From NCBI GenBank assembly GCA_002269645.1, contig NIVC01004508.1, forward strand, positions 1 to 43,672: DNA of 43,672 nucleotides, read 5' to 3'. Both the position numbers and the translations under genes were made by a program. Positions 3,158 through 30,117 of the stretch are shown here, one piece after another (position 1 is the first letter of the stretch; each line of letters opens with the position of its first letter). Under the pieces are notes generated by a model. That model did not search any database. It worked only from the letters and a program-made list of their open reading frames with translations, and had not been told where the DNA came from. This DNA comes from Macrostomum lignano (taxonomy: Eukaryota).

Positions 3158-3462
3158 AGTAGTATAGAAAAAGACGCTTCTAGACCCAGAGCACTTTTTT
3201 AATGACCGTTTTAAGGGTCTAGAGGGGGGACACGGGGGTAAATAAAAAAACACATCTAAACACCCTTAACACATCTAATCACCCATAATCACCCCTGACA
3301 ATAAAAATCATTCCCAACACTTCCAAACACTCCCCAACACCCCCTCGCGTCCCCCCTCTTAAGACCTTACAAACGGTCATTAAAATAAGGTCTGATCTAG
3401 AAGCGTCTTTTTCTATACTACTACTCTATAACCCCTTGCCCGCGCCGCAGGCGCGAAGGGTC
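3158..3462 (+). repeat. Left terminal inverted repeat (305 bp)
   Basis: Reverse complement of 20808-21114. By-eye alignment shows no substitutions and two 1-nt indels (G5 vs G6 near 3234; a T missing near 3340). Confidence 0.97.
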
Positions 3463-3519
3463 ACAAAAGAGTTTAAACTGAGTCATGGTAATAGTAACAC
3501 TCAACAAAAAATTACTCTC

Positions 3520-3630
3520 ATAGCCACTATTGGCTAGCTTGCAAAATCTTGCCGTAGCAGGAATTGAACGCCCACTCAGCCATCCAACTCTATAAAAACC
3601 ACAGCCATCAACCCAGTTCTAGCTCATCTC
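3520..3630 (+). promoter_or_regulatory. Putative Pol II-type promoter upstream of the first Polinton gene
   Basis: ATTGG (reverse CCAAT) near 3528 and TATAAAAA at 3591-3598, in the non-coding gap between the TIR and ATG 3837. Motif-only evidence. Confidence 0.35.
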
Positions 3631-3836
3631 TCAGGAAGAAGAAGACAGGCTCCGCGCGTCACAAGTAAAATGGGGTGCCCACCATCAATGAATAAGTTTT
3701 TAACAAATCGTCCAGAAAAATTCTGGACGTCCAGAAAAAAATGACTCAATGCAGTATATACACCATCTTGGGTTGAAAAATATTCTTTTGTGTGTTCTCG
3801 TATTCTTTTTTTCTGTTACTAAAAATAGAACAAAAA

Positions 3837-4235
3837 ATGACACACGTTACACATGTGCAAAATATAAATGAGTATCAGGTAGGAGATCCAATTGAATACC
3901 GAGGTGAGGGACTTTTTGATTTGGTTGGAACAGCAGCAAATTTTGTTAAAGACAATATGGGGCTTATAGGGCAAGCTGGCTCTGCAGCAGGCTCTATAAC
4001 AAATGCTGTAAAAGGAGGAATTGAAGCAGCTAGAGCGGCAGAAGAACTAAAGAAATTGAGAGATTTTAACGACACCCTCTCACAAATAAATGCAATAAAA
4101 GATTTAAAGCTGGCACAAGCCGCACAACCAACAGAAACCCCCACGAAAACCACGCCAATAAGTAATAAAGATATTCAGGATTTTAATAAAATGTTAAATA
4201 CTATTAAAGGTGGAAAAGGATTAAAGAAATTTTAA
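3837..4235 (+). CDS. Polinton putative virion core/membrane-active protein (132 aa from ATG 3837)
   Basis: Intact ORF with AAAAAATG start. G-x-G-L motifs (RGEGL, GGKGL) resembling maturation-protease sites flank an Ala/Gly-rich amphipathic segment. Confidence 0.65.
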   Translation: MTHVTHVQNINEYQVGDPIEYRGEGLFDLVGTAANFVKDNMGLIGQAGSAAGSITNAVKGGIEAARAAEELKKLRDFNDTLSQINAIKDLKLAQAAQPTETPTKTTPISNKDIQDFNKMLNTIKGGKGLKKF

Positions 4236-4245
4236 CAATATAAAA

Positions 4246-5285
4246 ATGGACTCAGTTAATGATGATGAAACCGGTTATATTTTATAGGAGAAATTGTAGA
4301 TACCTTAAATCTTGATGATAATAAGCAAACCACACAATGTTAAAAAGATTGGATCGATTAGGTAAAAAGTTTGACTACGACATCGATACATTTAAACTCG
4401 CAGCAAAATATGCACAAGAAGGAAGGCCAATATCCTTTAAGAATCGCGGCAGAAATTATAGGTTGACAGACTCCGATGTGAAATTTTTAATGGAGACTCA
4501 CACTAAAAAGGACGGCGGATTACTACCCATTCTACCGCTTCTTTTAGGACTTGGCGCAGCTGGAGCAGTCGGTTTAGCCGGAAAAAGAATTCATGATAAT
4601 GTAAAACAGCTAGGAGAGTTAAGAGCGAAACAGGGGGGAATCTTGCCCCTTGCAGCTTTGCTCCCAATAATTTTTGCAGGAATTGGAGCAGCTGGAGGAG
4701 TTGCTGGCGGAGCAGCTGGAATTGCAAAAGCAGTAAATGACAAAAAAGCTGCGGACGAAAAAGCTAAAAGAGAGGCCGAATTTCAAAGACAGCAAATAAC
4801 GCAGGACGCACAATTCAAACAGAAACTTATTGATACCATTAATAGTAGTTCAGCAACAGCAGAGCAAAAAAGAAATGCAGAAGCTAGGTTAGCAGCCGGA
4901 AAAGGTTTACTCTTGCAAGGAACAAATCACGGGAATGGTTTGGTACTAAAAGGAACAACCCAAGGAAGTGGAGTTGTCGCAGATAAACTACATGAATTTG
5001 GCAAACTTTAGAAAAAACGGGTGAGAAAGCTAAAGGATTTTTTGACAATATTGGATCCAATTTTAGACCAGCTGTTCAGAAATTTTTATAAATTAGGAAA
5101 AGATTTTAACATCATTGAAAAACACGACGGAAGCGGATTATATCTCGAAATGCGACCAAAAGCAGGTTCAGGAATTTTCTTAAATTCAAATGTTATGGGC
5201 AATGGATTGCTATTACCAAAAGCAGATCTCGAATAGGCTCCTGGGGGGGGTCTGGACACCAAAAACACAAATTAAAAAATCAATA
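4246..5285 (+). CDS. Polinton virion protein with two adenovirus pX-like hydrophobic peptides (frameshifted; core ORF 4337-5011, same-frame continuation 5021-5236)
   Basis: KDGG|LLPILPLLLGLGAAGAVG and KQGG|ILPLAALLPIIFAGIGAAGGVAG; repeated GKGL/GNGL/GSGV/GSGL/GSGI motifs. Upstream TAAAAATG at 4246 joins after homopolymer indels; ends are approximate. Confidence 0.65.
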
Positions 5286-5317
5286 ATTCAAACATTATAT
5301 AAATTTTATTCTATAAA

Positions 5318-5509
5318 ATGGAAGCAATTTTAGCTCAAATCGACAACCCTGAACTTAGAGCACAATTAATAGCTCAAATCGATGCACAACGAATTGCCGA
5401 TAGGGCTGAAATAGAAGCAAGAATTAGGGCAGAAAATGAGATACGTTTAGAAAGACAATTAAATGATATTAATAACCCCAACCACAAGGACAAAATGGAG
5501 CTGAAGTAA
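5318..5509 (+). CDS. Small coiled-coil-like hypothetical protein (63 aa)
   Basis: Intact ORF with CTATAAAATG start; could be an N-terminal part of pPolB. Confidence 0.45.
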   Translation: MEAILAQIDNPELRAQLIAQIDAQRIADRAEIEARIRAENEIRLERQLNDINNPNHKDKMELK

Positions 5510-5559
5510 TATATATAGATATAGATATAAATACAAATTATAAAGAATATTTTAAACAA

Positions 5560-8500
5560 ATGAAAGATAAATTAAAGACTATATTAAACAATTATACTAT
5601 AAGGCCAAATAACAAACGACAGCCAATTAAGTATAAAATAGAAGTTGAAACAGAATTTAAAAAACCAAATATTCTTAATGCAAATTCAGAAATTGAAGTA
5701 ATAAATAACTTTTCACAAGAATCATATAAAACATTATTATCAATGGGAAATTACAACAATCAATTCGATCAAATAGAAGCTGAGTTTGATGAATGGATAG
5801 ATAAGATGACAGAAAACGGATCTGGGTTTATATTTGTATCTGTAATTCAGCAATAGTAAAGATTGCACCTATAGAAATTCTTAAAGGACGATCACATATG
5901 AAGCTCAAATTTAAATCACCTATGATTATAAATCCAGACAATAAAGATAATAAATGTTTATTATGGTGTTTATTAATTCATAAATATCACAATCAAGTAG
6001 AATCACACATTAATAAAATATATAATTATAGACAATATGAGGATGAAATAATAATGAAAAACATATCATACCCAGTAGCAATAGATGATATATATAAGAT
6101 TGAAAAAATGAATGGTTTAAATATTAATGTTTTACAATTGAAGAACCAAAAGATCTAGAAGAAATTCAGCAGGTCGATCCAGAATGGTATAAGAAAAGGT
6201 GTTATCTTGTTAAGCCAGCAACTGATATAACAGCACCAGATCAAATCGATCTTTTGTACATGCAGCGCGAAAATGAAACACATTATATATACATAAAAGA
6301 TATTAGTTCTTTTTTAAGAGAAAATAGAAATAGATATCCACTATGTAGAAATTGTTTTACATTTAAAAAGGATGAAACAGCTCTTAAAAACCACCAACGA
6401 TTTTGTTTAGATCACAAATTTACTAATGCTATAATGCCAGCATCTGAAGATGCAACCCTAAAGTTCCAACAACATTATATGGCAGTTAAAAAACCAATAG
6501 TAATATATGCTGATTTTGAAGCAACAAATGTTCCCTTAAAAGAATCACAGACGGTATCTGATGACGGTCATGCAAAGCATGCGACCCTACGGGACGGTGA
6601 ATGCACAAAAAAATTGGCACAACAGTTTCCGAATAGTTATTGTATATATGTACACTCCGTAGCTGATCATATATTTAAATCAAGGATGATTACTTACCAC
6701 GGTAATGATGCAGCTAAGCACATGGCAGAATCATTAGTAAATGTATTTGAATATATTCAAAATCAATATGATAAATTATCAAAAAATATTAATATGACAA
6801 ATAAGGATAGAGACAATTATAAAAATGCAACAAATTGTTTTATGTGCAAAAGATATTTAAGTAAGAAAATAAGATACGAGAACATTGTCATCTAACAGGA
6901 AATTATCGAGGGGCAGCATGTAGATCATGTAATGCAAAAGAAGGAAAAGGATGTAAGGAAATACCAGTATTTTTTCATAATGGTTCCGGATATGATTTTC
7001 ATTTCTTAGTTCGAGAATTGCTTCATTTAGGAAAGGATGAATATGAAATAAATATATTACCTAAAACATCAGAAAATTACATATCAATAACATATGGTAA
7101 GAAATACTCCCATCTAGTTTTTCTAGATTCCTTGAGATTCTTATCAACATCTTTAGCAAATGTTGTTTCATCATTAGTTCCAAAACCATGGGATTTAGAA
7201 ATAGTAAAGAAAAACTTTCCAATACTATTGAATCGTTTCAAAAAGGAAAAACTATCCGAGGAAGAACTAATGCTATTAACTCGTAAGGGCATCTACCATA
7301 TGAATATGTAACATCTGAAGACGTATTTTTTCATACCGAATTACCCCCAATTGAAAAGTTTTATTCAACATTATCACAAACAAACATAAGTGAATCGGAT
7401 TATGAACACGCTCAAAAAGTATGGAAATACTTTAATTGTAAAACATTTAAAGATTATCATAATCTATATCTTAAAGCAGATGTTCTCCTATTAGCTGATG
7501 CATTTGAAAACTTTAGGAATCATACATATGAGAATTTTAAAATTGATCCCGCATATTGTTTCAGTGCACCGGGATTAACATGGGCTTGTGGTTTGAAACA
7601 TACAGATGTTAAGATTGATTTACTAACTGATCATGATATGTTGTTAATGATTGAGAGAGGAATTCGCGGTGGATTCTCGGGTGTACTAGGAGATAGATAT
7701 ACTAAAGTAAATAATAAATATCTACCAAATTATAATAAAAAAGAAAAATCATCATATGTATTATATCTAGATGCAAACAATTTATACGGTGGTTGTATGA
7801 AACAAAAATTACCAATAGCTGATTTCCAATGGGAAGATGACCCCGATTATTACAAAAATATTCCCGAAGGAAGGGGCTGTATCGTAGAGTGGATTTGCAA
7901 TATACTCGGGAAGCAAAAGCAAAAACATATAAATATCCTTTAGCTCCAGAGCATTGTTCAGTTAATGAAGATGATTTATCACAAACACAAAAAGATTATC
8001 TTAAAGTAGATAATGCAAAACATCTAGCAACAAAAAAATTAATATTAAATTTACATGATAAGAAAAACTATGTAGTGCATTATAAGCTTCTACAATTTTA
8101 TGAAAAGCAGGGATTAAAAGTGTCTAAAGTACATCGAACAATATCGTTTATTGAGGAAGATTGGTTAGCTAAATATATTGACTTTAATTCAAATCAGAGA
8201 CAGATGTCAAAAACAAATTTTGAGAAAGATTATTGGAAATTAATGAATAATGCTTTTTATGGAAAAACGGTTGAAAATATTAGAGATAGAACCCAATTCC
8301 ATTTAGAAAAGGATATTGATAAAGCAAAGAAATATTTCTCAAAACCTAACTTTAAAGACTTTATAAAATTTGATGATAACTTTATGGGTATTCATATGAG
8401 AAATAAAACAACAAAATTTCTTAAACCAATATTTATTGGAATGGTTGTTTTAGATTATGCAAAGCTGGTAATGTATGAATATTATTATGATGTTATAAAT

Positions 8501-9293
8501 AAAACATGGCCAGATAACTATCCAATATATGCAGACACCGACAGTTTGGTATTTAAGGTTGAAACAGATGATCGGAGTCCGCGAACCAAAGGTTCGATGT
8601 CTATAAAGATATGGAAAAAATTAAGGATACATTGGACACTCCGACTATCCGGATAACCATCCTTTAAAATCAGATCAAAATAAAAAAGTTGTACTTAAAA
8701 TGAAAGATGAATTAAATAGCAAAATCATAACCGAGTTTATAGCAATAAGATCAAAATGCTATGCATTTAAGGTTTTAGGACAGGAGGGAGAGGTAAAAAA
8801 AATAAAAGGGGTATCAAGAGCAGCAGTAAAAAAGATAACATTTGATGATTATAAAAACGTACTTTTAGATTACCTTAATACAATTGAAAATTATCATGCT
8901 CCACAATATCGATTAAATTCAGATAAGCATCAGATGTTTGTCATCGAGACAGATAAAAAAACATTAAGTCCATTTGATGATAAAAGATATTTAGATGATA
9001 AAATTAAAACATATCCATATGGTTTAAAAGAAGAGATAAAAAATATGATAAAAGATAAAAAACAAAAAGAAGATATAATAAGTAAATATAATGAATACAA
9101 AGCGGCAATAAATAATTATTATTACGATTGTGATTGTGAATCCGAATGTGATTGTGAATATAATACATTTCTAGAATATGAAAAAGATATAGATAATTAT
9201 TATTCAACATTTCCAAAAGAACTTAAAAAATTAAATAAGGAAAAAGTCTTGAATAACTGGAAGAGATTAACAGAAAAATTACTTATCGGATAA
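5560..9293 (+). CDS. pPolB: Protein-primed family B DNA polymerase (about 7 frameshifts)
   Basis: ExoI IYADFE; ExoII FFHNGSGYDFH (6967-7000); ExoIII YLKADVLLLADAFENFR; PolA YLDANNLYG; PolB KLMNNAFYGK; PolC YADTDS; endonuclease-VII-like Zn insert CFMC...IREHCHLTGNYRGAACRSCN. Breaks near 5846, 6151, 6869, 7297, 7880, 8575-8595 and 8640. Confidence 0.97.
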
Positions 9294-9348
9294 AATCGCG
9301 TAAAAAACTAAAGCATGTAATTGTTTAAGCATAATATCCATTTCGATT

Positions 9349-9639
9349 TCATATATATTGAGCCAATTTCCTCGCAGTCGCAGGGTAACTTAAACAATCC
9401 TTTATTTTTTTCCTAAGTTTTTTTATTTTTCTAACCAATCTATCTATTTCAATTTCAATTACTATTTCAGCATAAACAATATCTTGTCTTAAAAAACGTT
9501 TTCTTTTATCTATCTCATATCGGATGGGAAACATATCGTCCCCATACTCATGATATTTCTGAGATATAATTATATTTATTTTTTTATTAATATCATTAAG
9601 TTCACGCTCTTTAGTGATAAGGATTTTTATCGTATCCAT
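9349..9639 (-). CDS. Hypothetical basic protein (96 aa)
   Basis: Intact ORF with AAGAAAATG start, packed between neighbours. Confidence 0.55.
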   Translation of the reverse strand: MDTIKILITKERELNDINKKINIIISQKYHEYGDDMFPIRYEIDKRKRFLRQDIVYAEIVIEIEIDRLVRKIKKLRKKIKDCLSYPATARKLAQYI

Positions 9640-9654
9640 TTTCTTATAAAAAAT

Positions 9655-9987
9655 TTAGTCTTCGTCGTCATCCTCCCAAACAGCCGCCAATTTTACAGTC
9701 CTATCACTCTTTTTATTATTTGTTTGTTTTAGTTTAAATTGCAATCCACCCTCGTTGCAGTATTTCATAACAAACGCTTTAGGTTTATTAATAACTAAAA
9801 CAGGAAAATTTTTAACATCATCTCCGCTTAGACATAAAATTTTTTGCCCATCTAATTGTAAAAATATTGATTGAAGCCCAATAAATTTAACCTGTCTCAA
9901 ACATATAATATTATATTCTTTATTCTCCAACATATTGGGTGTGAGATAATTAATCACATTAGAATCGGTTTTGAACCAGCTCTCCAT
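9655..9987 (-). CDS. Hypothetical protein with acidic C-terminal tail (110 aa); possibly SSB-like
   Basis: Intact ORF with TAAAAATG start; beta-rich body and WEDDDED tail. The SSB idea is inference only. Confidence 0.6.
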   Translation of the reverse strand: MESWFKTDSNVINYLTPNMLENKEYNIICLRQVKFIGLQSIFLQLDGQKILCLSGDDVKNFPVLVINKPKAFVMKYCNEGGLQFKLKQTNNKKSDRTVKLAAVWEDDDED

Positions 9988-10013
9988 TTTTAATCTAAAA
10001 AAATAACAAAAAA

Positions 10014-10526
10014 ATGAAAGACATTTATGTTTGTAATAAATGTAATGTGACTATGCACAGAGGGCAAACAGCAAACGGAGATATATATCATATGTGTTAT
10101 TCATGTTCTAAAATATATCAATTTGAAAAAACAAAAAAGATTGAAAACTCATATTACTATTTTAAAAACACAATTTTAAGAAATCTTACAAGAGACATTT
10201 CTGATCCAATTTTAATTCCCGGAAATAATGTTTATTTATATAATAACTTTTTCCATTTAAATAAAGGAAAGGGATTAAGTTCGAAAGACTCCGAAAGGAT
10301 TTTAATTTTAGTTGGATATTATTTCAATTTTCTTATTCGAGAGAATACAAAGTTTATAAGGATAGGTAACATACCTAACGAAATGTTATTGAAAAAGTCA
10401 TTGGAATTTTTATGTATTGATAAAAAATTTAAACCTAGGATCAGAAGAGAGTTACCACTTTGGGAAGAATATATAACATATGCATTAGAAAAACTAAACA
10501 ACCTGAAGTTCTACAGCACTTCCTGA
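10014..10526 (+). CDS. Hypothetical protein with N-terminal Zn ribbon (170 aa)
   Basis: CNKC...CYSC motif; AAAAAAATG start; intact. Confidence 0.7.
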   Translation: MKDIYVCNKCNVTMHRGQTANGDIYHMCYSCSKIYQFEKTKKIENSYYYFKNTILRNLTRDISDPILIPGNNVYLYNNFFHLNKGKGLSSKDSERILILVGYYFNFLIRENTKFIRIGNIPNEMLLKKSLEFLCIDKKFKPRIRRELPLWEEYITYALEKLNNLKFYSTS

Positions 10527-11148
10527 CCGCGGGCTTTGTGCCCCAGTAGCAATAGTTTCAGGTTCGTAAATGCCTAATGTTTCTATCGGTGGAGCTTTGG
10601 GTTTATCGAGTCTCAACTCTTTTAATTCCATATCGGTAAAAGTTTCAACATCTAAAATTCTATTTCTATCTTTTAAATATTTTTCATATAATTCAACCGC
10701 GGTTGATAATTCATGAATCGTTATCTCTCCGTCATCCAATATTTTTTGCACATATAAATATAATTGATTTTTATATTGTTGCAACATCTCTTAAAGATTT
10801 ATATTTTTCCTTTCTTTTTTTAAGATATAATTTAATTGCTAAAAGTATTGATAAGTTCCTGATCAATTCAAAACCTGATATTGAGCCAATTGAAATACCT
10901 AAAAATAATTGAGATAAATTAAGAGTTGGAATAGATTGTAAAATACCTAAAACGATTACACATAACATTGATAAGCTTCCAAATCCAATATTGAAAAAGT
11001 CCATATTTCTTATATGGTTTGAAACTCTTCTTACTTTTTTAGCATATAAATCATAATCATAGTTAATACGATCAACATTACTTAACATCTGACCTTTACG
11101 TTGGTTGAACCGGTCGCGTTCCCATTTATCTGCTTCAGATACCGACAT
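10494..11148 (-). CDS. Polinton two-TM membrane protein (one frameshift near 10780)
   Basis: ORFs 10771-11148 and 10494-10787 overlap and join. Two hydrophobic helices, then KKRKEKY and KILDDGEITIHEL, a pattern resembling conserved Polinton/adintovirus membrane proteins. Confidence 0.7.
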
Positions 11149-11160
11149 TCTCGTCTATTT

Positions 11161-11460
11161 TTAATAGCACCAAAATGAATTCCCCACGCTCTTTGGGATT
11201 TGCCCGGAGCTTAATAGGTATTGTATTGGAGTTATTCTTTCTTTTTTCTCCCATTTAAATCCTATTTTCCAAAACTCTTGAAGTATAATATGATTTTTTA
11301 ATAACTTAATTAATTCTTGAAGCTTCTTATTATCCTGAACATTTACAGTACTAAATAAAAATTTGGTATGAGATTTGAATGTTTTTATATTTGATTCTTG
11401 TTTAGGAATAGGAATAATAACATTATTTTGCCGCATCGATGGAGTTCTACTAAAAGCCAT
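11161..11460 (-). CDS. Hypothetical basic protein (99 aa, MAFSRTPS...)
   Basis: TATATAAAATG start at 11460 inside track ORF 11161-11607. Confidence 0.55.
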   Translation of the reverse strand: MAFSRTPSMRQNNVIIPIPKQESNIKTFKSHTKFLFSTVNVQDNKKLQELIKLLKNHIILQEFWKIGFKWEKKERITPIQYLLSSGQIPKSVGNSFWCY

Positions 11461-11499
11461 TTTATATAGAAATATTTTATATTTGAGTAGGAGGTTTTT

Positions 11500-13509
11500 C
11501 CAAATAAGCAGTAGAGGAAAAACATAACCAAACGATGTACTACCACAAACTGCGCCACGAATAAAATGTGCAGCATCCGATCCTCCAGTTCGAGCACCAA
11601 AACCCATAAGGTTCCACTTTATCTAAAGTTCCCCAAGTTCCACTATCATATGTGAAAACGTTCTGCCAATGAGGGTAAAGAATCACCAGCAACATTGTAT
11701 GTATGAATCTATACCAAACCCTTTGATTTAAAATATTAATTTCAAACAGATGCCAATCACCGTTATCAATATTTGCATAGGCTACAGTTTGATCCGCGTC
11801 AGTATTAACATCGCGCGGCTTGATCCGTCTGATTTTTTTGAACTCCAAAGTAGGCCAAATTTATCATGCCACTCACTAGCAAAAACTATCAATCCGGCGT
11901 CGGTTGATAATCCAGATCCAAATTCCGATGTTGGACGTTGGTGACAGTATGCATAAAACCAAACCGCATCTGCACCATCTCCTGTAGCATTAGCAACTCG
12001 GAAAAAGAAAGACGCAGATATATTTTGAAAATGTGTGAAATTGAATTGTAAAGCACCACTTACTCCAGAAGTTTCACGAGTAATTCTAGCGCCGTTTTGA
12101 TAATCGATATAAGAAGCGTCACCAATTAAAGAACCGACTGGATATATATCTCCGGCGGTTGTTGGATTTTGATATCCAGACCAATTGCAAATTACTGGTT
12201 CGAACAAGGCCGCATCAATAGCAGGTATTCCATCCAATTTATTTTTATCGCTTCCAGACATTCTACCATTTGATGTTGGAGTAGCTAGCTGATCTACGTA
12301 CGCTCGCGGAACTGCAGAAAGTATTTGAGTTGGCCAATTAAGATCTTGAATTTCAACACGGTGTTCAAATAATTGTATTTGACGAACCTCGATAGGTTGT
12401 GTACCGGTACCACCAGTTGGGAAGAATACGCTATAATATTTCCAAAAATTAGTCGTTAAATTAGATAGAGCAAATGATGTTGCTTGAACTGGTGATCCCG
12501 ACGTAGTTAATGTCGTCCATGAATCGGTAGCAACATTTTTTGCGCGAACCGACCACCCCGAGGGTATCTCAATTGTTTCACTGCCTGTAATTCTTAATTC
12601 AAATATTCTTCTATTATAACCTAAAAATTCAAATTGAATTTCCATATTGGTTGTGGTTCCGGTATTTGGTGACCATTGTGTCGCAAGGCTTCCATCTCCA
12701 ACTCGAAAAGCTGTGTTGCCATTTTCAGATGCTGTAAGAACAACATCAGGATTTGAAGTATTTGATGTAAGCGGCGTGGTAAAAATATCGGCGTCGGTTG
12801 CATTAGCTCGCTCGTTTACTTGGCCTAGAGTTATCGAGTCTGCGTTATCTGTTCCAAATAATAAATTTGTTAATTTAAAATTATTCATATTAATATTACC
12901 ACTACGAGTGGCAACTTGATTATCGACATAGTTCTTATCAACCACTGAATCACTAGTTGTAATTGAAACATTTATAATTCGGTTGTTGCTCATATCTAGG
13001 TTTCCGGTTGCGGTGGTTTGAACATAACGTGAATCAGAATCAGTTCGAGAATAAGAATCAGTTACATCTCTTTTTAAATTTAATCCATTATCAACTTCGG
13101 TTTTGGTATAAGAATCGGCTACGTTCCGTTTCAAATTTAATGAATTATCAACTTCGGTTTTGGTATAAGAATCGTTATATCTTTTTAAATTTAATGAATT
13201 ATCAACCTCTGTTTTGGTATAAGAATCGGCTGTATTGCGTTTTAAATTTAATGAATTATCAACTTCGGTTTTGGTATAGGAATCGGCTACGTTCCGTTTC
13301 AGATTTAGTGAATCATCTATTTGAGTTTTGGTATAGGAATCTGCAACATTTCTTTTTAAATTTAATTTATTATCAATTTCAGTTTTTTTATAACCTTCAT
13401 CCTCATTAATATATCGATTATCTCCAAATGTAACACTTATTCCACCAGATGTGCCACCACCACCACTACTTGTTGTTCCGTTCCATGAGGGTGTTCCAGA
13501 AAATAACAT
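11500..13509 (-). CDS. Fibre/receptor-binding protein: 19-aa shaft repeats, discoidin (F5/8C)-like domain and L-type lectin-like head; 3' part frameshifted
   Basis: About six YTKTEVDNSLNLKRNVADS repeats; VVDKNYVD and VPRAYVD tail-fibre-like motifs; WSP...IQFEF...WTTL...YYSVFF...IQLFE discoidin-like pattern; GDGADAVWFY and FGARTGGSDAAHFIR lectin-like motifs spread over ORFs 11782-13509, 11540-11848 and 11161-11607. 3' end is approximate. Confidence 0.75.
13035..13392 (-). repeat. 57-bp coding tandem repeat in the fibre shaft (~6 units, one of 54 bp)
   Basis: TCAACTTCGGTTTTGGTATAAGAATC... recurs with ~57-bp period. Confidence 0.9.
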
Positions 13510-13519
13510 TTTTTACTGT

Positions 13520-13960
13520 CTATTTTATAGAGTCTAAAATCGCCCTAAAGTCTTCGGGGTTTACACGAGCTTCATTCGAAAGTCGATATAAAAAATACAA
13601 CGCCGCTTGCCCGCAATAACTTTTATCAAAGGTTTGAAATTGTTCGTGATGATCTCCACATAAACGATTTTTAGTATGATTAAATTTGTCTTTTATTTCC
13701 TGTAACGGAGGAAGCGCGTATGAATCAAAAAAATAAACAAGTTTAGGTTTGGAATAAACTGCCGACCAATGAACACCATTTTCTTTTGTTGTTTCAATAT
13801 TAACAATGAAAGATCCATATTGTGGTAAGTCTTTGATCTCATCTCGCATAACACATCTGAATGGTTTTATTTTTAACTGCCTCGCCCAATTTGTTAATTC
13901 GATATTGCTTGTTGTGTCCGTTCCATATCTTTGTTTAAAATCATCCCACGTCATGGTCAT
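13520..13960 (-). CDS. Adenain-like cysteine (maturation) protease
   Basis: Catalytic pattern GVHWSAV (H), YFFDSY (D), QFQ...SYCGQ (Q/C); intact 146 aa. Confidence 0.93.
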   Translation of the reverse strand: MTMTWDDFKQRYGTDTTSNIELTNWARQLKIKPFRCVMRDEIKDLPQYGSFIVNIETTKENGVHWSAVYSKPKLVYFFDSYALPPLQEIKDKFNHTKNRLCGDHHEQFQTFDKSYCGQAALYFLYRLSNEARVNPEDFRAILDSIK

Positions 13961-13961
13961 T

Positions 13962-14144
13962 TTATGTTCCTGAAAAACTCTTGGTTTTAGTTAGTTTCGT
14001 AGGTGTGGGTTTTAACAATTCCTTTCTTATTTTATCAGCTTGTAACTGCCTTAATTTTGCTAGTTCTAGTTCGTAATTATCTTCAGCTTTTTTAACTTTT
14101 TCTGATTGTTTTTTTATTAAATTATTATTATTATTATTACCCAT
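13962..14144 (-). CDS. Small basic protein (60 aa), MG N-terminus
   Basis: Intact ORF with GTAAAAATG start, tightly packed between penton and protease. Confidence 0.55.
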   Translation of the reverse strand: MGNNNNNNLIKKQSEKVKKAEDNYELELAKLRQLQADKIRKELLKPTPTKLTKTKSFSGT

Positions 14145-14157
14145 TTTTACTATAGGA

Positions 14158-14940
14158 TTAAACCTGTTTTATACGTAAAATTATTGTTATTGACTGCCCA
14201 CCAAAACTTATTAATCTATCGCTTTCATCTACAATCCTAATATAAATTGATTGAACATATATTGATTTAATGGGTAATATATTGGGGTTTGGGTGCAACA
14301 ATCATTTTCTCTCCAATTGGAACAGCAAGAAATGGGATTGAATAAATAATTCCACGTTGAACCAAAACTCCATTATTATCTGTTATATAACCGCCGTTTG
14401 ATATGTCGGTTGTTATATTAATTGTATTACTCCGCCCTCAATGTTTCCCACTGTATCACCGGTGCTTGATGTGGTAACTATTCGGGAATTAAATCCAAGT
14501 ATGGTTCTGAGTGAATTTGCAATTGTGAAATCAACCTGATATCCGGATCCTAGTGATAGTGTGAATCTGCCAGACGGTAAATCAACACCTATAACAATTG
14601 CTCCTGCTACCCAATCACCATTAGTTGTTAATTCTCCTTCTATATAAGCATTCAAATCAGTATAGCTATACGCTCCTGGGTTAACGCTAAATGTTGTCCA
14701 ATTGGCTCCGGAATCTTTAGAATATCTAAATTGATTATTTGTTGCATTAATTAATTGAGGCATGTTGAAAACCGAAAATAGAATTAAACCTATTTGATAA
14801 CTTAGGCTTTGATCAAGTTGTAATGGATCGCGCAATTGAATCCGTTGCTCGCTGGTTGTCATTATAAACTGTAATGTTGTACTAAATTTTGAATTAGTTC
14901 GATCTACCAATTGTTTTATAGTATCTAAATTTGTAGTCAT
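14158..14940 (-). CDS. Minor capsid protein (penton, single jelly roll); frameshifted after ~14420
   Basis: LRDPLQLD...IGLILFSVFN...INATNNQFRY...PGAYSYTDLN...SLRTILGF. The shifted tail reads NITTDISNGGY...IIYSIPF...IYIRIVDESDRLISFGGQSITIILRIK and stops at 14158-14160. Confidence 0.88.
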
Positions 14941-14991
14941 TTTTATAGTGGGGAAATCGAACCTTTGGTTCGCGGACTCCGTCCGATCGTG

Positions 14992-15786
14992 CTATGTCTC
15001 TTCTTCCTCATTATCTTCTTTTATCAAATTTGTTAAAATTCTATGTTTCCTTTCTAACCTCGGATTGATATAAATATGTTTGTATTGGCTATCATCCCAA
15101 ATTTTTTTACACATACTTTTAAATGGTTTTGCATCCAATCCGGGATTAAATCTAGCGTGAATATTTTGTAAATCATAATTATCTAAATCAAACATTACAC
15201 AACAGCTAGCATTCTTTTTTATAATCGATTCTAATTCTCTAAAGGATTGAGTAAGATAAAAAGCTCCAATTCCATCTCCTCTACCACTAACAAAAATTTC
15301 CTTTTGCAATTCTTGATCACCGTCATTAATACAATCATCAAAAATAATTAGTGTTTTATCATGTTTTGGAATTTGATCATAGGCTAATCGGGTTGATACT
15401 CTAACAGTTGGGGCGCGATCGGACGAAGTCCGCGACCCTTCGGGGCGATCGGTGATGTTTTCTGGCTGTTGTGCCATTGTTTTACATAAATCCTCAATGT
15501 CTGCTAGATTAAATCGCGGTTCGTCATCATCCTCATATTGCTCATATGCTCTTAACATTCTAAACAAGACATCTTTTTTTAATTTGTTTTTTAATCCATG
15601 TTTAAGAAATTCATAATATTTTATTCTAGGTTTATTAGTATAAATTATTAAATTATTATAGTCTAACATTCCATCTGTTGTTAATAAATCGTAAACAAAG
15701 TGTGTTTTTCCTTTACCTGATCCTCCGATTACTAAACAAAGAAAAGGATCATTTGGAAATATTTTATTGTGTTTTGCCTTTACCAT
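14992..15786 (-). CDS. A32/FtsK-like DNA packaging ATPase
   Basis: Walker A GGSGKGKT, Walker B LIIFDD, motif YLTQSF; intact 264 aa. Confidence 0.95.
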   Translation of the reverse strand: MVKAKHNKIFPNDPFLCLVIGGSGKGKTHFVYDLLTTDGMLDYNNLIIYTNKPRIKYYEFLKHGLKNKLKKDVLFRMLRAYEQYEDDDEPRFNLADIEDLCKTMAQQPENITDRPEGSRTSSDRAPTVRVSTRLAYDQIPKHDKTLIIFDDCINDGDQELQKEIFVSGRGDGIGAFYLTQSFRELESIIKKNASCCVMFDLDNYDLQNIHARFNPGLDAKPFKSMCKKIWDDSQYKHIYINPRLERKHRILTNLIKEDNEEEET

Positions 15787-15896
15787 TTTTAAAGAAATAA
15801 TTTAAATAGGCGCGACGGTCGGAGACCTGCACTCATTTTACAATGGCGCGTCCCGAACAATCGTGCCATCAGCTTTAGCAATTGACATATATTCCT

Positions 15897-17310
15897 CTAG
15901 AAACAATACGTGGCGTCAAGTGCCTGATTACCGGTTTTATTAATCTCTAACATATAATTAAGTCCAATATTGGCTACGTTTTCTTTCTGTGCCGTTAGAT
16001 CATAAACAACCACTGGATGAATGTTTAGAAACTCTGTGGGTGTGTACTGAGGGACGGCATACGCTTCATTTTTAGCATAATCTTGATAATATTTTATAAA
16101 ATCATTAACATTATTATTTGCTATATTTAAATTTAGGGGGTCTTTAACCGGATAATATTGATCATCAACCTGCAGGCGGATATTCTGAACATTAAACTCG
16201 TTAATAGCTGCAGCCGCATTGTCTGTTGCGGTGGCTGCTTGTTCTGCTATGGCACCGGATTGAAGCCAATATAAATCCCCATTTGCTCTTTTACTCCTTC
16301 TATTTGTTATCTTAAACCAAACAAAAATATATCTCACCCGACGTTTTGATGTCAGTATTTGCCACTGGAATGAATCCTGGTTATTATTAATGGTTCGCAT
16401 AAAATGTCGACGATTCAAATAAAATATTTCCTGATCATGCGTTAACTGATTATCGATGTGTTTTAAAAGTGGGGCTGTTACCTCAATAGTTGGTACGACT
16501 AATTGAATTGAATCTATACGAACTGCTATATCGGTTGAAATTGAGGTTCCATAAAGTATCCTAGGCTGATATCCACCAGATATTTGCAACTGTATCCCAA
16601 ATTTTAATCCTTTCCATACCCGATTTGGTGAAAAGAACCCAAATAGTGGAAAGATTGAAAAGTCTTTGCTCATATGCTGTTGCTGTGGTTAAAACCGCTA
16701 CTGGGAATTTATTCTGACGAGCTATAAAACCTGTATTAATATCTTTTGTATTAGTCATGGTGGTTACAACTGGAACTATGTTTGTATTAAGGTAAACAAT
16801 TAGCGCTGCAGTATCTGCACCGGCTGCGTTTTGTACATTAGGGAAAACTACTGCTTGTCCATTACCCCTTATCAGGCATCCACCCAACATTATCACCAAC
16901 TTGTTTTGATAAATAAGTATAATTTAAATGTTTCAAAACTCCATTAATCTCTGCGGGGTTTGATGATGTCTCAACCTCAGCACCATTAACAGTTAGTTGA
17001 GCTTGGGAAAAACATTTATAAAACCAATCATTTTCTATTATTATTCCGGATCGATCTGCGATATCTCCGGCTGCAAGAGCAGTTCCATCATTTCTAGTAT
17101 ACAACCATCTAACGCGGAAAAACGCATTTTTCATATCCAATATAGTGTTGGTTGCGCCGATGTCAAAAGTTACCGTTCCAGTAGTAAAGTTATTTGAATT
17201 ATCACTTGTTGGTAGGGTATAATTTAAATCTTTGCTCTGACCTCATTAATATACTGTCGGTGCTTTTTGAAATGAAATTTATCACTCCACATAGTTTTTG
17301 TTTCAGCCAT
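15897..17310 (-). CDS. Major capsid protein (double jelly roll), ~470 aa, 3 frameshifts
   Basis: ATG 17310 (TTAAAAAAATG). Fragments LDMKNAFFRV...CFSQAQLTVNGAEVE, IDSIQLVVPTI, RVRYIFVWFK, VQNIRLQVDDQYYP and VVVYDLTAQ follow the Polinton MCP pattern. ORFs 16862-17140, 16561-16899 and 15897-16673 overlap in series. Confidence 0.9.
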
Positions 17311-17344
17311 TTTTTTAAGTTAAAAAAGTTTTTTATGTTAAAAA

Positions 17345-18010
17345 ATGAGTCAATTTATGGACGTTGATGGAGAGTTAGCGATTTATAAAGAGAAGCAAAG
17401 ATATTCTGATTTTGTTAGAAATTTACAAAAAAGAAAGTTAGGAATACAATTAGCGGGTGAAAGATTTGCTGCTCCTTTTGTTAATCCTATTACTGGGAAA
17501 ATTAGTGAACTAGAAAAAACAGATAAAGATCTTCTGGAAAAAATTGCTACGAATACTGAGCCAAAAGAGGATGAAATTTTGGATGAGCCGCCTGCTTATG
17601 ATGTTGATCAAGCACAATTGAGAATTGCAGAGATTAGACGTGCAGAGCGGGGCGATCGGGAACAATATCCAAGAGTACCAGCTAGTATTGCTGCGACAGA
17701 TTTAGGTAATAATAATTATCGAATTGGTGGAGTTGATAAAAATCGAAATGAACTATATAGAGAATTGGGTGGAGCATATAATATTGTTATGAACCCTAGG
17801 GTAAAATTTAACCCTGATTTATATACTAGGGATGAATTAATAAGTGCTAGAATTTTTTATGATGAGTTAGGAGGAGCTGTTAAAAATACCAGCTTGTATA
17901 AAAGGATTGTTAATTCTATAAATAACAAACTAGCTGTTGGTGATGGATTTAAAACACCACGAAAACTTGTTTTAGCTGCTGCGAAAGCTGCTGGACATAC
18001 TGGTGTTTAA
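17345..18010 (+). CDS. Polinton hypothetical protein (221 aa)
   Basis: Intact ORF with TAAAAAATG start, divergent from MCP; C-terminal VGDGF G-x-G motif. Confidence 0.75.
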   Translation: MSQFMDVDGELAIYKEKQRYSDFVRNLQKRKLGIQLAGERFAAPFVNPITGKISELEKTDKDLLEKIATNTEPKEDEILDEPPAYDVDQAQLRIAEIRRAERGDREQYPRVPASIAATDLGNNNYRIGGVDKNRNELYRELGGAYNIVMNPRVKFNPDLYTRDELISARIFYDELGGAVKNTSLYKRIVNSINNKLAVGDGFKTPRKLVLAAAKAAGHTGV

Positions 18011-18037
18011 TTAATTGTTAAATTTATTTTTTATAAA

Positions 18038-18640
18038 ATGGAAACTAATAAGATTTGTACTAAGTGTAAACAAGAAAAACCGATGACAAAAGAATTTTAT
18101 TTTTGGAGAAATGATTCAAAAAAATTTAGAAATGATTGTCGATCTTGTCATAATACCTCATCTGCTATTTGGATAAAAAACAATAAAGATAAATGGAATG
18201 AATATAGAAAAAATAAGTATCACACTGATGATAATTACAAACATATTGTTTTAATTAGAAATAGAATAAATTGGGCGTTGAAAAATTTTAATGACAAGGA
18301 CTATATCTCATATCTTGGTTGCACAAAAGAATTCTTTTTTGATTGGTTAAATTTCACAAGAAATTATTATGTATCAAAAGATTATACTGGAAAGTTAGAT
18401 ATTGATCATTTCATTCCCGCTTCTTCGTTTAGTTACAAAGATGAAGATCAGATGAAAAAGTCTGAAAATTGGAGAAATAAAAGATACTTAACTAGCGTAG
18501 ATAATAACTATAAAAAAGTTAAACAACCAACCATTGAAGAGTTTGCAAAACAATTGGTGCTATCATGTATTTTTAAGGCTATTAAAAATGAGCAACCGAA
18601 CGAAGTTCGCGTTCCTTCGGAACGATCAAATAGTGTTTGA
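18038..18640 (+). CDS. Free-standing HNH/endonuclease VII-like (beta-beta-alpha-Me) endonuclease (200 aa)
   Basis: N-terminal CTKC...CRSC Zn finger; YLGC...FFDWL; DIDHFIP...NWRN...DNNYKK, resembling HNH-type endonucleases of large DNA viruses and phages. Confidence 0.8.
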   Translation: METNKICTKCKQEKPMTKEFYFWRNDSKKFRNDCRSCHNTSSAIWIKNNKDKWNEYRKNKYHTDDNYKHIVLIRNRINWALKNFNDKDYISYLGCTKEFFFDWLNFTRNYYVSKDYTGKLDIDHFIPASSFSYKDEDQMKKSENWRNKRYLTSVDNNYKKVKQPTIEEFAKQLVLSCIFKAIKNEQPNEVRVPSERSNSV

Positions 18641-20224
18641 AGGAGGATTGTTAGATGTTCAAAAAGGATTAACAAGCTTACCACCAATCTTTACTACTGG
18701 AAGGTATACAAATGAATTACACATCCCATCTTACAACTTCGCGGGTGGAGCTCGAGCTGTGCCCGAGTGGTAGATGCAAAGCTACTGCTAGTCACTATTA
18801 GTGGCAACACCAGCCGCTCACTCAATCCCCTAAAGCTTCAAGTACCACTTTGTTTTCGAAAGATTACAAAGGAACAGAGGTAACTCCTCTTCCCAACGGT
18901 AACAAGCTTGAAGATAAATATATGGGCAAGAGTGAATCGAAAACCTAACCTCATATGACTTGAGTATGGTTGAGATGCAACGACTGTACGCTGGTGGGCT
19001 TGAAGGACTTAGTCAATCCTTATGATAGCTTAAGACACAGTCTACTCCTTTGTGAAAGCAAAGGTATAAAGGCCGGGTTGACTCGACTCGATCTCCGATT
19101 AAATCCTGATAATACTCCAAAAGCCGATTCAATTCCCATTAACGGTATTGATTGGTTAGCATACTATCATGACTTAGCATACAGAGATGCTGATAAGAAC
19201 TCACCCGAGGAAGCATTAAGATTAAAACATGAAGCCGATCAAAAAATGATTCAAGGATTAGATAACTTGCAGGGATTATCAGTAGGTCAGAGATTAACTA
19301 GGTGGATGGTTAAAAAGATTTTGCAGTCTAAAGTTAAATTTGGTTTGGGAATTAATTATAATCAACATGGAAATAATTGTGTTGAGTGTTTGTTGTTAAG
19401 TGGCGGTGGGTTAAGTTCTGATGAGGCAAAGATTCTTCATAAAGAATATCGAAAACCTAAATTTTATAGAAAAATCATGAACTTCAAAAAGAACGAAATT
19501 TGGTATGCTGATTTAATGTCTATGCCGATCGATAAAGGATATAAATATATTTTAACCATATTAGATGGTTTTACTCGATACGCGTGGGCTGTTCCTTTGA
19601 AATCCAAAAAAGGAGAGGATGTTGCTGCTGCTTTTAGAAGTCTTGGAGAAAAAAGCGAAAGATTGTGTGTTGACGAAGGAAAAGAATTTTACAATCCTCA
19701 TATGTATAAATTATATCATTTTGAAAAAGGACAAGAAAGGAAAAAGGACGCGAATGGGGAGTATATTAATAAAATTTATTCTATTTATGGAGAGAGTAAA
19801 AACGCATTAATAGAAAGATTTAATCGAACTTTAGGTAAGAAATTGTGGTTTCAGTTTAGTCTTAATGGAAACCAAAAATGGGTAAAAATATTACCAGACG
19901 TTGTAAAAGATTATAACAATTCATATCATTCGGCCATAAAGATGGCTCCTCAACAAGCTTATAACAATCCTGAAAACGTTAGGGTTACTTTTGGAGATTT
20001 TGAAAAAAAAGAAAACTAAAGGTTTTAAGGTTGGTGATTCTGTTTATATCTATAAATGGAAAGATAAGTTTGAAAAGGGAAGAAAAGGATATTGGAAAAT
20101 AAGTGAGAAATTTACCATCAGTAAAGTTTTAAATACAAACCCTACAACCTATATAATTGCTGATAAGGATGGTGAAGAAATATTGGGTTCTTTTTATGAG
20201 AACCAGATAATGTCTGCGAACTAA
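18588..20224 (+). CDS. PLA2-integrase fusion (exon 1 18588-18746, exon 2 19081-20224; one indel in the A-run near 20005); ~430 aa after splicing
   Basis: TAAAAATG start. LHIPSYNFAG|TRLDLRL...INGIDWLAYYHDLAY...EADQKM is a parvovirus VP1u-type PLA2. IWYADL...ILDGFTRYAWAVPLK...VDEGKEF...IERFNRTL is an rve DDE core. C-terminal FKVGDSV...GSFYENQI. Confidence 0.93.
18747..19080 (+). ncRNA. Group I self-splicing intron (IC-type with P5abc), 334 nt, no internal ORF
   Basis: P1 exon CGGGU/IGS GCCCG with U.G; perfect 7-bp P3; 6-bp P4; P5abc with A-rich bulge and GAAA L5b; P6 with 11-nt receptor-like motif; P7 GACUG/CAGUC with bulged C; J8/7 UAAGACA; P9 GAAA hairpin; terminal G. Removal restores the PLA2-integrase frame. 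Confidence 0.93.
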
Positions 20225-20234
20225 GTTCAAACAG

Positions 20235-20459
20235 TTACTTAAGACAACATGGTAGTAAATTTTTTATAACAAACAAAAACAATATTATTACTATAATTGT
20301 TACTAATATTATTATTGACATTTGTTCAACTGTTATCAAACTTAAATTTTCATTAAGTTCATTAATCGGCACATTTCCGATGTAGGAATAGTTTACCTTC
20401 ATTTTTTTATATATATTTTTCACAATAAATGTCGTTTCTGTTATAGAATAATAGTTCAT
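20235..20459 (-). CDS. Small single-TM protein (74 aa), C-terminal LLPCCLK
   Basis: Intact ORF with TAAAAAATG start; hydrophobic IIILVTIIVIILFLFVI segment. Confidence 0.6.
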   Translation of the reverse strand: MNYYSITETTFIVKNIYKKMKVNYSYIGNVPINELNENLSLITVEQMSIIILVTIIVIILFLFVIKNLLPCCLK

Positions 20460-20475
20460 TTTTTAAATATTTTTT

Positions 20476-20790
20476 TCACATAAAAATTTCACTTTCATTC
20501 TCTGAATCACTGGTTTCATATGAACTATTTGTTGATTCGGAATCTGTTGATCTAACCTCCCAATCATCCGAATTTAAATAATCTCCAAGTTGAAATATTA
20601 ACTCACCCTCTTGTTCTAAATCATACATCTCATCTAGCTCTAATGGATAAAGCTTTAGGTCATGCTTGTCGTCATATTTTAAATAAACTTCATCAATTAT
20701 TCCATTCAAAATATGTTGTTTTATTATCTCTGCATTTTTAGCAACAGTCTCAAAAGTATCACTAACAGAAAAGGTGTAAACTCGGGTCAT
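20476..20790 (-). CDS. Acidic hypothetical protein (104 aa), first gene inside the right TIR
   Basis: Intact ORF with CTAAAAATG start 18 bp from the TIR. Confidence 0.65.
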   Translation of the reverse strand: MTRVYTFSVSDTFETVAKNAEIIKQHILNGIIDEVYLKYDDKHDLKLYPLELDEMYDLEQEGELIFQLGDYLNSDDWEVRSTDSESTNSSYETSDSENESEIFM

Positions 20791-20807
20791 TTTTAGTAAC
20801 AGAAAAA

Positions 20808-21114
20808 GACCCTTCGCGCCTGCGGCGCGGGCAAGGGGTTATAGAGTAGTAGTATAGAAAAAGACGCTTCTAGATCAGACCTTATTTTAATGACCGTTTG
20901 TAAGGTCTTAAGAGGGGGGACGCGAGGGGAGTGTTGGGGAGTGTTTGGAAGTGTTGGGAATGATTTTTATTGTCAGGGGTGATTATGGGTGATTAGATGT
21001 GTTAAGGGTGTTTAGATGTGTTTTTTTATTTACCCCCCGTGTCCCCCCTCTAGACCCTTAAAACGGTCATTAAAAAAGTGCTCTGGGTCTAGAAGCGTCT
21101 TTTTCTATACTACT
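20808..21114 (-). repeat. Right terminal inverted repeat (307 bp)
   Basis: Ends ...GAAGCGTCTTTTTCTATACTACT at 21114; matches the left TIR. Confidence 0.97.
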
Positions 21115-21502: not shown

Positions 21503-22000
21503 CAGTGGCAAAACGGAATGGTAGCAGATGGAGTGAGTAAAGATGCTGACTGATTGTTAGCTTGTTTGGTTGTTTGTTTGTTGCTTCTGTATTGTTAGTA
21601 TTAGCTATTGTCATTATTGTTATTAAAATGAGCTACTGAGTCGGAAAGAAGAAGCTATAAGCCGTTTTTTACCTACATGCTGCTGTCTACCGAGCATTCT
21701 GCTGTTATTGGCGTCGACATGGCCTTGCCTTTGGACAGTTCATTTTCTTCGTTTCCAATTCAAAAGTAAAAGAGCAAGTAACAGCTGGCTGGCTGGCTTG
21801 ATATTGAAGGGGGTGGGGACTGAAGTACACCTAATAAATAAGAATAAAAGCCTTGACTGGAATGCACTGTGTTTATTGTCTATGGCACGCACTCTACGAA
21901 GATTTTAAATGCTATTTAAGAAAGTTTTCTTTTTATCCTCTCTCTAAAACGAATGCGGAAGACGCGAATTGACTATTTATAGATTTCTAACTACTATATA

Positions 22001-22707
22001 TACCTTTTTACGTTCTATTTGATAAAAACTGCAACCAATTTGGCCACGGCTCAGCCTGACGCAGCCGCAGCAATTTTCCATAGACAGCCACCGCTAGCGG
22101 CAACCAATTTGTTAAAAACTGCGAGCTATTTTGCCAGCTTGAAGATAGCAGCTCAATAGCATAACAATAACGATAAAGAATGTTAACAATACATGCACGA
22201 AGTCAGAACATTATGTCCTCAGCATTCAAGCACCGATTGAAGTACGTCTGGGAATGGTTGATCCAGCGCAGGCACTTGAGAGGCGTGATGCAGTTCAGTG
22301 CTTGCTGCACTTCTCTCTTCAGAATGCGCATTCTGTGCTGATGCAGTGTCGCACCTGCTGCAGCAGCCAGTCCAGTATCTGCCAACTCTACCAGTTCGTT
22401 CATACGTGGTCACGATGTTCCTCACTGTCGGTTTCTTCATCCCCATCATTCTGCCAAGCTCTCTCCAGTCGTCGCCACTCCTGTACGCTCTCACGATTCG
22501 CTCTCGATCCAGCTGACTTATCTTTTGGTACGGCCCACGATTCGCCATCAGAGCAGCTGCTATCTTCAAGCTGGCAAAATAGCTCGCAGTTTTTACCAAA
22601 TTGGTTGCCGCTAGCGGTGGCTGTCTATGGAAAATTCTATGTCTATGGTCAGGCTGAGCCGTGGCCAAATTGGTTGCAGTTTTTATCAAATAGAACGTAA
22701 AAAGGTA
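22001..22707 (-). mobile_element. Internally deleted (non-autonomous) Tc1/mariner-superfamily DNA transposon
   Basis: TA duplications at 21999-22000 and 22708-22709; ~153-bp TIRs (TACCTTTTTACGTTCTATTTG...). N-terminal HTH MANRGPYQKISQLDRERIVRAY...KPTVRNIV is joined out of frame to a transposase-like C-terminal helix (ITPLKCLRWINHSQTYFNRCLNAEDI); DDE core absent. Confidence 0.9.
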
Positions 22708-22880
22708 TACTAGCATGCATATAAAAATGGATACATATATATGTTATTAATTGTGCATTAATCAACAGCAGCAGAAATAGAAGGATAAATCATTAGATCC
22801 ATCAACTGTATAATAACTAGCGAATAACAGATAATTATTATATATGAACTTTTACAACTGTTAATTAAACGTGCTCATTA

Positions 22881-30080: not shown

Positions 30081-30117
<37 letters not shown>

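Follow-up and report, generated by a model that had tools for sequence, protein, structure and literature searches.

An endogenous Polinton-type element in the genome of Macrostomum lignano carries, in one locus, a slot that in sister copies holds alternative, unrelated nuclease genes, followed by a PLA2-integrase gene with a group I intron. The element of about 18 kb lies in contig NIVC01004508.1 (assembly GCA_002269645.1), of which the whole stretch of 43,672 nucleotides was analysed and is called the window. Our best explanation, which we regard as probable, is that the locus consists of a nuclease slot and a shielding intron whose best-supported partner is an Eco47II-type restriction nuclease predicted to cut GGNCC, the HNH nuclease of the window being a second mobile nuclease. 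The original prediction, made from the sequence of the window, had instead seen the HNH gene and the intron as a collaborative-homing pair. The arrangement from which it started agrees with the coordinates and the list of open reading frames (ORFs), as the HNH ORF at 18038-18640 is intact (200 aa), the PLA2 start at 18588 creates a 53-nt overlap with it, the HNH stop lies 106 nt before the end of exon 1 at 18746, and the intron encodes no nuclease. The features are:

3158..21114, no strand given: Polinton-type endogenous element with terminal inverted repeats (TIRs), A32 ATPase and rve integrase; zero GGNCC
17345..18010, + strand: gene upstream of the slot, its left boundary; no Pfam or PHROG family
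18038..18640, + strand: HNH1 nuclease gene, slot occupant; N-terminal Cys4 zinc finger, C-terminal DH..N..N motif
18588..18746, + strand: exon 1 of the PLA2-integrase gene, ending on the Gly codon of a YxGPG-type motif
18747..19071, + strand: ORF-less group I intron, type A, assigned from helices, compensatory changes, fold z -3.0 and P10 duplexes
19072..20019, + strand: exon 2, rest of the PLA2-like domain and rve integrase (Pfam)

Sister loci were collected by a search with exon 2, which gave 507 candidates, of which 150 were scored; most scored loci were taken and weak fragments left out. Subtraction of 24 duplicates, 11 second-family loci and two loci without exon 1 from 161 loci leaves 124 family-1 loci. 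Since exons of Wnt genes, whose 86 matches in the 764-Mb host assembly mark the host as an animal, often recur two to four times, the assembly contains duplicate haplotypes and the locus counts are not independent; collapsing the 124 loci at 99.5% identity gives 96 haplotypes with an unchanged pattern. Intron A is found in 24 of the 124 loci, a type B intron, inserted at the same site and sharing the 5' half with A but with a different core, in 97 and no intron in three. The slot holds an HNH gene of type HNH1 or HNH2 in 84 loci, the restriction nuclease in 34 and a broken or remnant gene in six, in the following combinations:

HNH1: with intron A 3, with intron B 63, without intron 3
HNH2: with intron A 12, with intron B 3, without intron 0
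Restriction nuclease: with intron A 7, with intron B 27, without intron 0
Broken or remnant slot: with intron A 2, with intron B 4, without intron 0

An identical intron region of 334 nt occurs in 12/23 copies, the flanking segments of which differ by up to 11%, and the slot genes next to this identical intron A are of all three kinds, HNH1, HNH2 and restriction nuclease. Of the predicted partnership between nuclease and intron, the recurrent layout and the existence of blocks of slot gene, exon 1 and intron are upheld, but the best-supported partner is the Eco47II-type enzyme (34/124) and not the HNH protein.

The alternative slot gene belongs to Pfam RE_Eco47II (PF09553), with scores of 27 and 30.1 bits for intronic copies at a cut-off of 25.9. 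Eco47II enzymes belong to the PD-(D/E)XK group (PMC3424549) and GGNCC is the specificity of the Eco47II homologues (PMC10305163). The structure model of the nuclease (predicted local distance difference test, pLDDT, 92) is closest in fold to EcoO109I (Z 9.8, root-mean-square deviation 3.7, 157 aligned; Foldseek E 5e-5), with the PD-(D/E)XK fold and the catalytic residues present and the E-D-ExK motif found in 22/23 intact free-standing copies. The ratio of non-synonymous to synonymous divergence (dN/dS) is 0.21 for free-standing and 0.29 for intronic copies, as pairwise means which are not independent. In family 2, whose PLA2 region is about 60% identical, an intron inserted at the same GGT|CC site contains the nuclease ORF in 20/20 loci, chosen by similarity to this intronic ORF, and the independent metagenome contig Ga0224502_10072777 has the nuclease within an intron in the same layout. 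The family-2 and metagenome introns pass the Rfam group I model RF00028 with 85 and 81 bits (cut-off 50); in the stretches fetched around three intron-less family-2 copies, neither nuclease was found. Viral relatives of the enzyme are restriction-modification pairs, a C5-methylase-like gene adjoining them in 10/10 IMG/VR loci (two confirmed by TIGR00675), several on contigs labelled as giant-virus assemblies. A cognate methylase was not detected by Pfam among 26 family-1 and 16 family-2 ORFs, the Polinton-type nucleases group in a clade apart from the restriction-modification forms, with a long separation between the two (100/100), and the search for a prokaryotic genome match to the restriction nuclease gave none. 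More divergent free-standing nucleases stand behind the upstream gene in L185 and L186 (C1063, C1064), with no PLA2 match 3' of them in the stretch fetched, and family 2 also encodes a primase-D5-type helicase and an Endonuclease_7 match in a polymerase-N-terminal-like ORF (L209:1950-4448, 6071-7537).

The recognition sequence of the family is missing from the elements. The window element contains no GGNCC, against 20.4±4.7 in 200 shuffles (0/20.7 observed/expected in a pattern scan), as do the intron-bearing element C1867 (0/22.8) and the family-2 element C2696 (0/21.3), these elements measuring 18-19 kb. Intron-less elements retain one or two sites (C3967 2/20.5, C3031 2/20.8, C2167 1/15.1, the boundary of the last placed just inside one further GGNCC near its end), and the Gly-Pro site is included in each. 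Among 1024 gapped patterns, ranked where at least 12 occurrences were expected, GGNCC has the lowest observed/expected value in both families, and the host flank has 54/46.5 (54 in 22.6 kb). Long ORFs of both families contain no Gly-Pro, with 6-8 expected. At the viral restriction-modification loci expected counts are small in 9/10, with a modest deficit or none, and one G+C-rich locus has 36 sites where 112-131 are expected. A fourth PLA2 group, decayed and buried in host DNA, was dropped as an uninformative control. Family 1 also under-represents CCNGG (8 vs 20.7), CTNAG and CANTG, perhaps through another nuclease or a codon effect; CCNGG is not short in family 2.

The site at which the introns are inserted is the exception to this loss. 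In the intron-less alleles L058, L129 and L136 the reading frame runs straight into Pro-Gly-Thr-Arg, which fixes the insertion site at GGN|CCN (Gly-Pro). The window intron is a group I intron, an assignment made from its helices and compensatory changes: P2, P2.1 and P3-P9 are recognised in addition to P1 (18742-46/18761-65), among them P3 (18808-14/18990-96), P4 (18818-23/18930-35), P7 (18982-87/19037-42) and P9 (19047-52/19059-64). The U18746.G18761 pair of P1 at the 5' splice site is present in 10/10 distinct A variants, three decayed relatives being without that part. P3, P4, P6 and P7 are fully paired in the window intron, with a bulged base and a G-C guanosine-binding pair in the P3-P7 core; the three decayed relatives break some core pairs. 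Double compensatory changes are found among 13 sequences in P5b, P5c and P9, and in P3, P4 and P7 there are none in these 13 except for one P3 pair in two decayed copies. RF00028 matched neither intron A, undetected at E<=1, nor one ORF-less type B intron (L025), and no ORF of at least 60 aa starts within 18747-19080. Three terminal Gs are possible 3' splice sites. G19071, with which the frame is kept and an 8-bp P10 can form from the first exon base, is favoured; G19080 also keeps the frame, and G19072, the homologue of the end of intron B and of three decayed relatives, puts exon 2 out of frame in 24/24 type-A copies. A spliceosomal GT-AG intron at 18745-19071 was rejected, as the frame shifts into a stop and the ribozyme helices are ignored, and so was a degraded single copy, the 3' junction being alike in 24/24 intron-A copies save one upstream base. 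The predicted exon junction of intron A has no DNA copy in the genome, and four runs presumed to be RNA, searched as contigs, gave no joint across the intron, a result uninformative on expression or splicing. The long inserts L046 (unrelated DNA within intron A) and L159 (a truncated intron) contain no full nuclease.

Several further observations concern the introns and the interrupted gene. Introns A and B (window 18761-18914 vs L025) are about 80% alike over P1-P2.1 and the P5 extension and differ in their P4/P6/P7 cores, which suggests recombination between ribozymes; the core of B is presumably IC1-like and that of A IE-like. Type-B introns end in A in 70/97 and in G in 27; in those copies that were read, the guanosine-binding pair does not differ. 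Decayed type-A relatives with partial exon 2 occur in L182-L184 (C45, C114, C2521), outside recognisable elements in the stretches fetched. No viral contig was found with the core motif of intron A; that of intron B matched at least 122 viral stretches (IMG/VR, L233-L354), many on contigs labelled giant-virus assemblies, and of 80 such loci with flanks 15 have a relative of the window HNH within 5 kb and none a PLA2 or integrase match. In exon 2, the open frame comprises 351 aa in the window copy and 419 aa in most intron-A sisters, with Pfam matches to PF08398 (E 0.008, short of the cut-off) and PF00665 (E 8e-8), synonymous divergence is high (dS 0.49) and dN/dS is 0.05. The last nine codons of exon 1 (window 18720-18746 and sisters) occur in more than 30 haplotypes with many amino-acid changes, a possible signature of target escape and a candidate target of the HNH nuclease. 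From the PLA2 start to the splice site there are 126-129 nt (overlap 20-23 nt) in 69/124 loci, 159 nt in 20 and other lengths in five, with 30 uncalled; in the window copy the overlap is extended by an insertion:

18594..18626 (limits approximate), no strand given: palindromic insertion

Taken together, these data lead us to a more specific proposal, which we consider plausible while stopping short of calling it probable: a restriction system that dispenses with a methylase, has its sites deleted and the last one hidden under a ribozyme, and whose enzyme has turned into a homing endonuclease, with the HNH gene competing for slot and intron. In the best explanation, which we hold to be probable, the Polintons would use an Eco47II-type endonuclease, related to restriction-modification enzymes of giant viruses and apparently not accompanied by a methylase, and would protect themselves by genome-wide loss of GGNCC together with the intron instead of by methylation. 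As Gly-Pro is always spelled GGN-CCN, the last GGNCC site cannot be removed by synonymous change; the group I intron would interrupt this site at the DNA level, the reading frame being made whole again when the RNA is spliced. An intron-less relative would then offer Gly-Pro as almost its sole cuttable site, so that a 5-bp cutter could act as a homing endonuclease, and repair of relatives cut in this way would bring in a copy of the intron, sometimes together with the slot gene. The nuclease probably also cuts unrelated DNA. In family 2 it is carried within the intron; in family 1 it stands alone immediately upstream of the intron, which is the collaborative-homing layout. The HNH nuclease of the window, whose gene occupies this slot in the majority of family-1 copies, probably has a longer target of its own nearby; it would gain the immunity of the intron to the GGNCC cutter and seems to need no intron for its own protection. 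Of all this, the sequences themselves display the layout, the exchange of slot genes, the intron-borne form and the loss of GGNCC, from which specificity, cleavage, splicing, homing and the HNH target are inferred.

A number of points weigh against this explanation. The GGNCC specificity of the Polinton nuclease is deduced from its family and from the avoidance of the site, and the free-standing copy scores 23.8 bits on PF09553, under the cut-off of 25.9. Family 1 is also poor in other GG..CC spacings, CCNGG included (8-14 vs about 21), which brings a fair baseline for GGNCC nearer to 11, and a control family, richer in G+C and defined solely by a polymerase match, is mildly short of GGNCC (12-17 vs 19.5-22.4). 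The absence of intron-less copies with the restriction nuclease (0/34) carries no statistical power (Fisher p=1), the independence of the HNH gene from the intron is deduced from three alleles, of which two are near-identical, and the tree does not settle the order of the free-standing and intronic forms. Moreover, an integrated element would put itself at risk with an enzyme that cuts the DNA of its host, and no mechanism of control was found.

In the HNH protein, H124, N147, N156 and K159 are invariant across 46 aligned sequences, ORFs of at least 175 aa are present in 65/90 HNH loci, all 65 with the catalytic motif, and dN/dS of the HNH domain is 0.33, again as non-independent pairwise means. 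Its description as endonuclease VII-like holds in so far as phrog_1035 matches residues 5-130 (E 2e-7), but the Pfam scan assigned no family to it, and matches to phage HNH profiles are also weak. A profile search collected 20,311 family proteins at E<=0.001, where a word-index search returned no relatives. The structure model (pLDDT 93.6) gave weak fold matches with a best Z of at most 4.9, Hpy99I, GVE2 HNH, Cap5 and Cas9 HNH being among the top rows, and zero Foldseek matches at E<=0.001.

That this enzyme cleaves PLA2 alleles which have no intron, at the insertion site or close to it, with the intron protecting its own allele, the pair spreading together and the restriction nuclease as a parallel partner, is the strongest alternative, although we judge it unlikely. 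In its favour, besides the constraint on the HNH gene, six HNH2 copies with identical intron A are 99.4-100% alike over slot, exon 1 and intron and diverge outside this block (upstream gene 93%, exon 2 94-98%), and intron A is found in 7/9 collapsed HNH2 haplotypes but in 2/55 of HNH1. In additional HNH loci which were fetched, the gene likewise stands immediately behind the same upstream gene. The HNH relatives P0015 and P0166 and the intron-type nuclease P0176 share a 46-residue C-terminus that reads through the same intron core, which suggests that one intron of this kind carries the two enzymes elsewhere; P0015, 34% identical to the slot HNH, groups with the slot HNHs in a 16-row subclade (100/100). 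However, no viral contig was found for P0015 and the insertion site of its intron is not visible in the protein sequence alone. All three intron-less family-1 alleles carry an HNH gene with the catalytic motif (two full-length, one broken at the N-terminus), HNH1 is combined with A, with B and with no intron, identical intron A with three slot genes, and the HNH2-A link is inflated by shared descent and haplotype duplicates. The independent distribution of HNH gene and intron, named beforehand as telling against the original prediction, is thus partly seen, for HNH1, and countered by the tie between HNH2 and A. The co-conversion expected around 18746 may be reflected in the common block of HNH2, exon 1 and intron A, yet the same intron also moves without HNH2. 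The depletion of GGNCC is not equalled by that of any other motif among the 1024 gapped patterns, which gives no clue to the HNH target, as expected if that target is long or tolerant.

That the GGNCC nuclease serves mainly to attack the DNA of the host or of unrelated viruses in a co-infection, the intron being a passive shield fixed by selection and the mosaics the product of ordinary recombination instead of homing, we hold to be quite improbable. The 5-bp site is common in the host DNA, an element guarding itself against a frequent cutter would be expected to lose the sites throughout its genome, intron-less family-2 alleles are still common (19/24 matches carry the intron-less junction) and a competitive intron endonuclease has been described in phage PhiPA3 (PMC11620839). 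However, the nuclease lies inside or just upstream of the intron, the position of a homing element, and the identical 334-nt region persists despite its divergent flanks; a role as a weapon is compatible with the best explanation. The least probable alternative is that a co-infecting giant virus with an Eco47II-type pair imposed the loss of GGNCC, the intron being the shield and the Polinton nuclease and the HNH gene later, largely neutral passengers, for although the nearest viral relatives are restriction-modification pairs, several on contigs labelled giant-virus, and HNH-carrying and intron-less copies (one or two sites left) lack GGNCC as well, both nucleases are under purifying selection, the Polinton-type enzymes have their own long-separate clade and no helper virus was identified in this analysis.

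The hallmarks of a Polinton/Maverick element are present in the window: TIRs, rve integrase and A32 ATPase are matched directly (Pfam for both proteins, the PLA2-like match being weak), capsid and polymerase by less direct routes. The jelly-roll capsid is recognised through a family-2 homologue that matches PF21738 and is 22% identical to the capsid of the window element; the polymerase, which we take from family-B motifs to be of the protein-primed type, gave no Pfam match and is split over several ORFs. An inverted-repeat search placed the termini:

3158..3462, no strand given: left TIR
20808..21114, no strand given: right TIR

Each TIR is part-palindromic (3158-3427, 20843-21114), and the ends match directly and inverted, like flip/flop hairpin ends. 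Palindromic mini-insertions with a CGAAC..GGTTCG-type core, possibly a mobile mini-element, stand at 8573-8601 (polymerase region), at 14953-14981 (near the minor capsid gene) and at 18594-18626, and also within loops of some type-B and family-2 introns. Outside the element, the window (29543-37419 and 21999-22716) contains pieces of host genes with RNB and AAA_11 domains, presumably HELZ2-like, as well as a short element of Tc1/mariner type that has inverted repeats.

If true, the proposal would let one watch directly how a restriction enzyme turns into the nuclease of a mobile intron, and would mean that nuclear DNA of an animal contains group I introns that work. It predicts that the nuclease cuts GGNCC and that the intron junction is immune, bears on the origin of homing elements from restriction enzymes, one host supplying the two states, free-standing nuclease and mobile intron, between which such a path has been proposed, and implies that these Polintons co-infect and compete as viruses. 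According to a review, group I introns are absent from metazoans save a few basal lineages and some sharks (PMC10964413), a near-absence with which the more than 100 group I introns in endogenous viruses of one animal genome stand in contrast.

Among known systems, protist Polinton-like viruses have group I introns of about 300-380 nt together with HNH and GIY-YIG genes (PMC12220804). Group I introns and HNH genes are thus common to both, but the introns reported there are from protists only, interrupt a short gene that precedes the capsid gene and have no nuclease partner assigned, whereas here the host is an animal and the interrupted gene encodes the PLA2-integrase, with a single insertion site used by two types of intron. 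In PhiPA3, gp210 is an HNH nickase of an intron with experimentally shown interference competition (PMC11620839); here, too, an intron nuclease may harm co-infecting intron-less relatives, although the enzyme class differs and the activity is predicted. Collaborative homing has been raised as a possibility for helicase-nuclease pairs of entomopoxviruses (PMC11296320), and mirusvirus spliceosomal introns contain PD-(D/E)XK and HNH genes (PMC12768974); related literature includes PMC8502044 and bioRxiv 10.1101/2023.08.22.554363. On this intron site, a Polinton Eco47II-type nuclease or GGNCC loss, no literature was found in a search that left most subscription papers outside, as well as tables S11-S12 of PMC12220804, which may list related introns.

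With Eco47II-family type II systems (PF09553; PMC10305163) the nuclease shares the Pfam match, the catalytic motif and the EcoO109I-like fold. In contrast to them, no methylase was found here, protection apparently comes from site loss and the intron, and the gene is intron-borne or intron-adjacent. This places a restriction-enzyme fold within a group I intron in family 2. The same combination is found in I-Ssp6803I, an intron-encoded PD-(D/E)XK homing endonuclease; such enzymes recognise long sites, whereas in the Polintons avoidance across the whole genome would turn a family site of 5 bp into a unique one. Closest in layout is F-CphI beside the psbA intron of cyanophage S-PM2, an example of collaborative homing (PMC6083498), cases of which are also described for T3/T7-like and ICP1 phages (PMC10448857): a free-standing nuclease adjoins an ORF-less group I intron predicted to interrupt its target. 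In contrast to F-CphI, whose cleavage has been demonstrated and is here predicted, the Polinton locus belongs to a eukaryotic integrating virus, its one slot accepts alternative unrelated nucleases, the partner is a restriction enzyme with a short site, and free and intron-borne states coexist in one host genome. A restriction enzyme without a methylase and, as its partner, an intron by which the last of its sites is concealed would make up a variant that apparently has not been described before.

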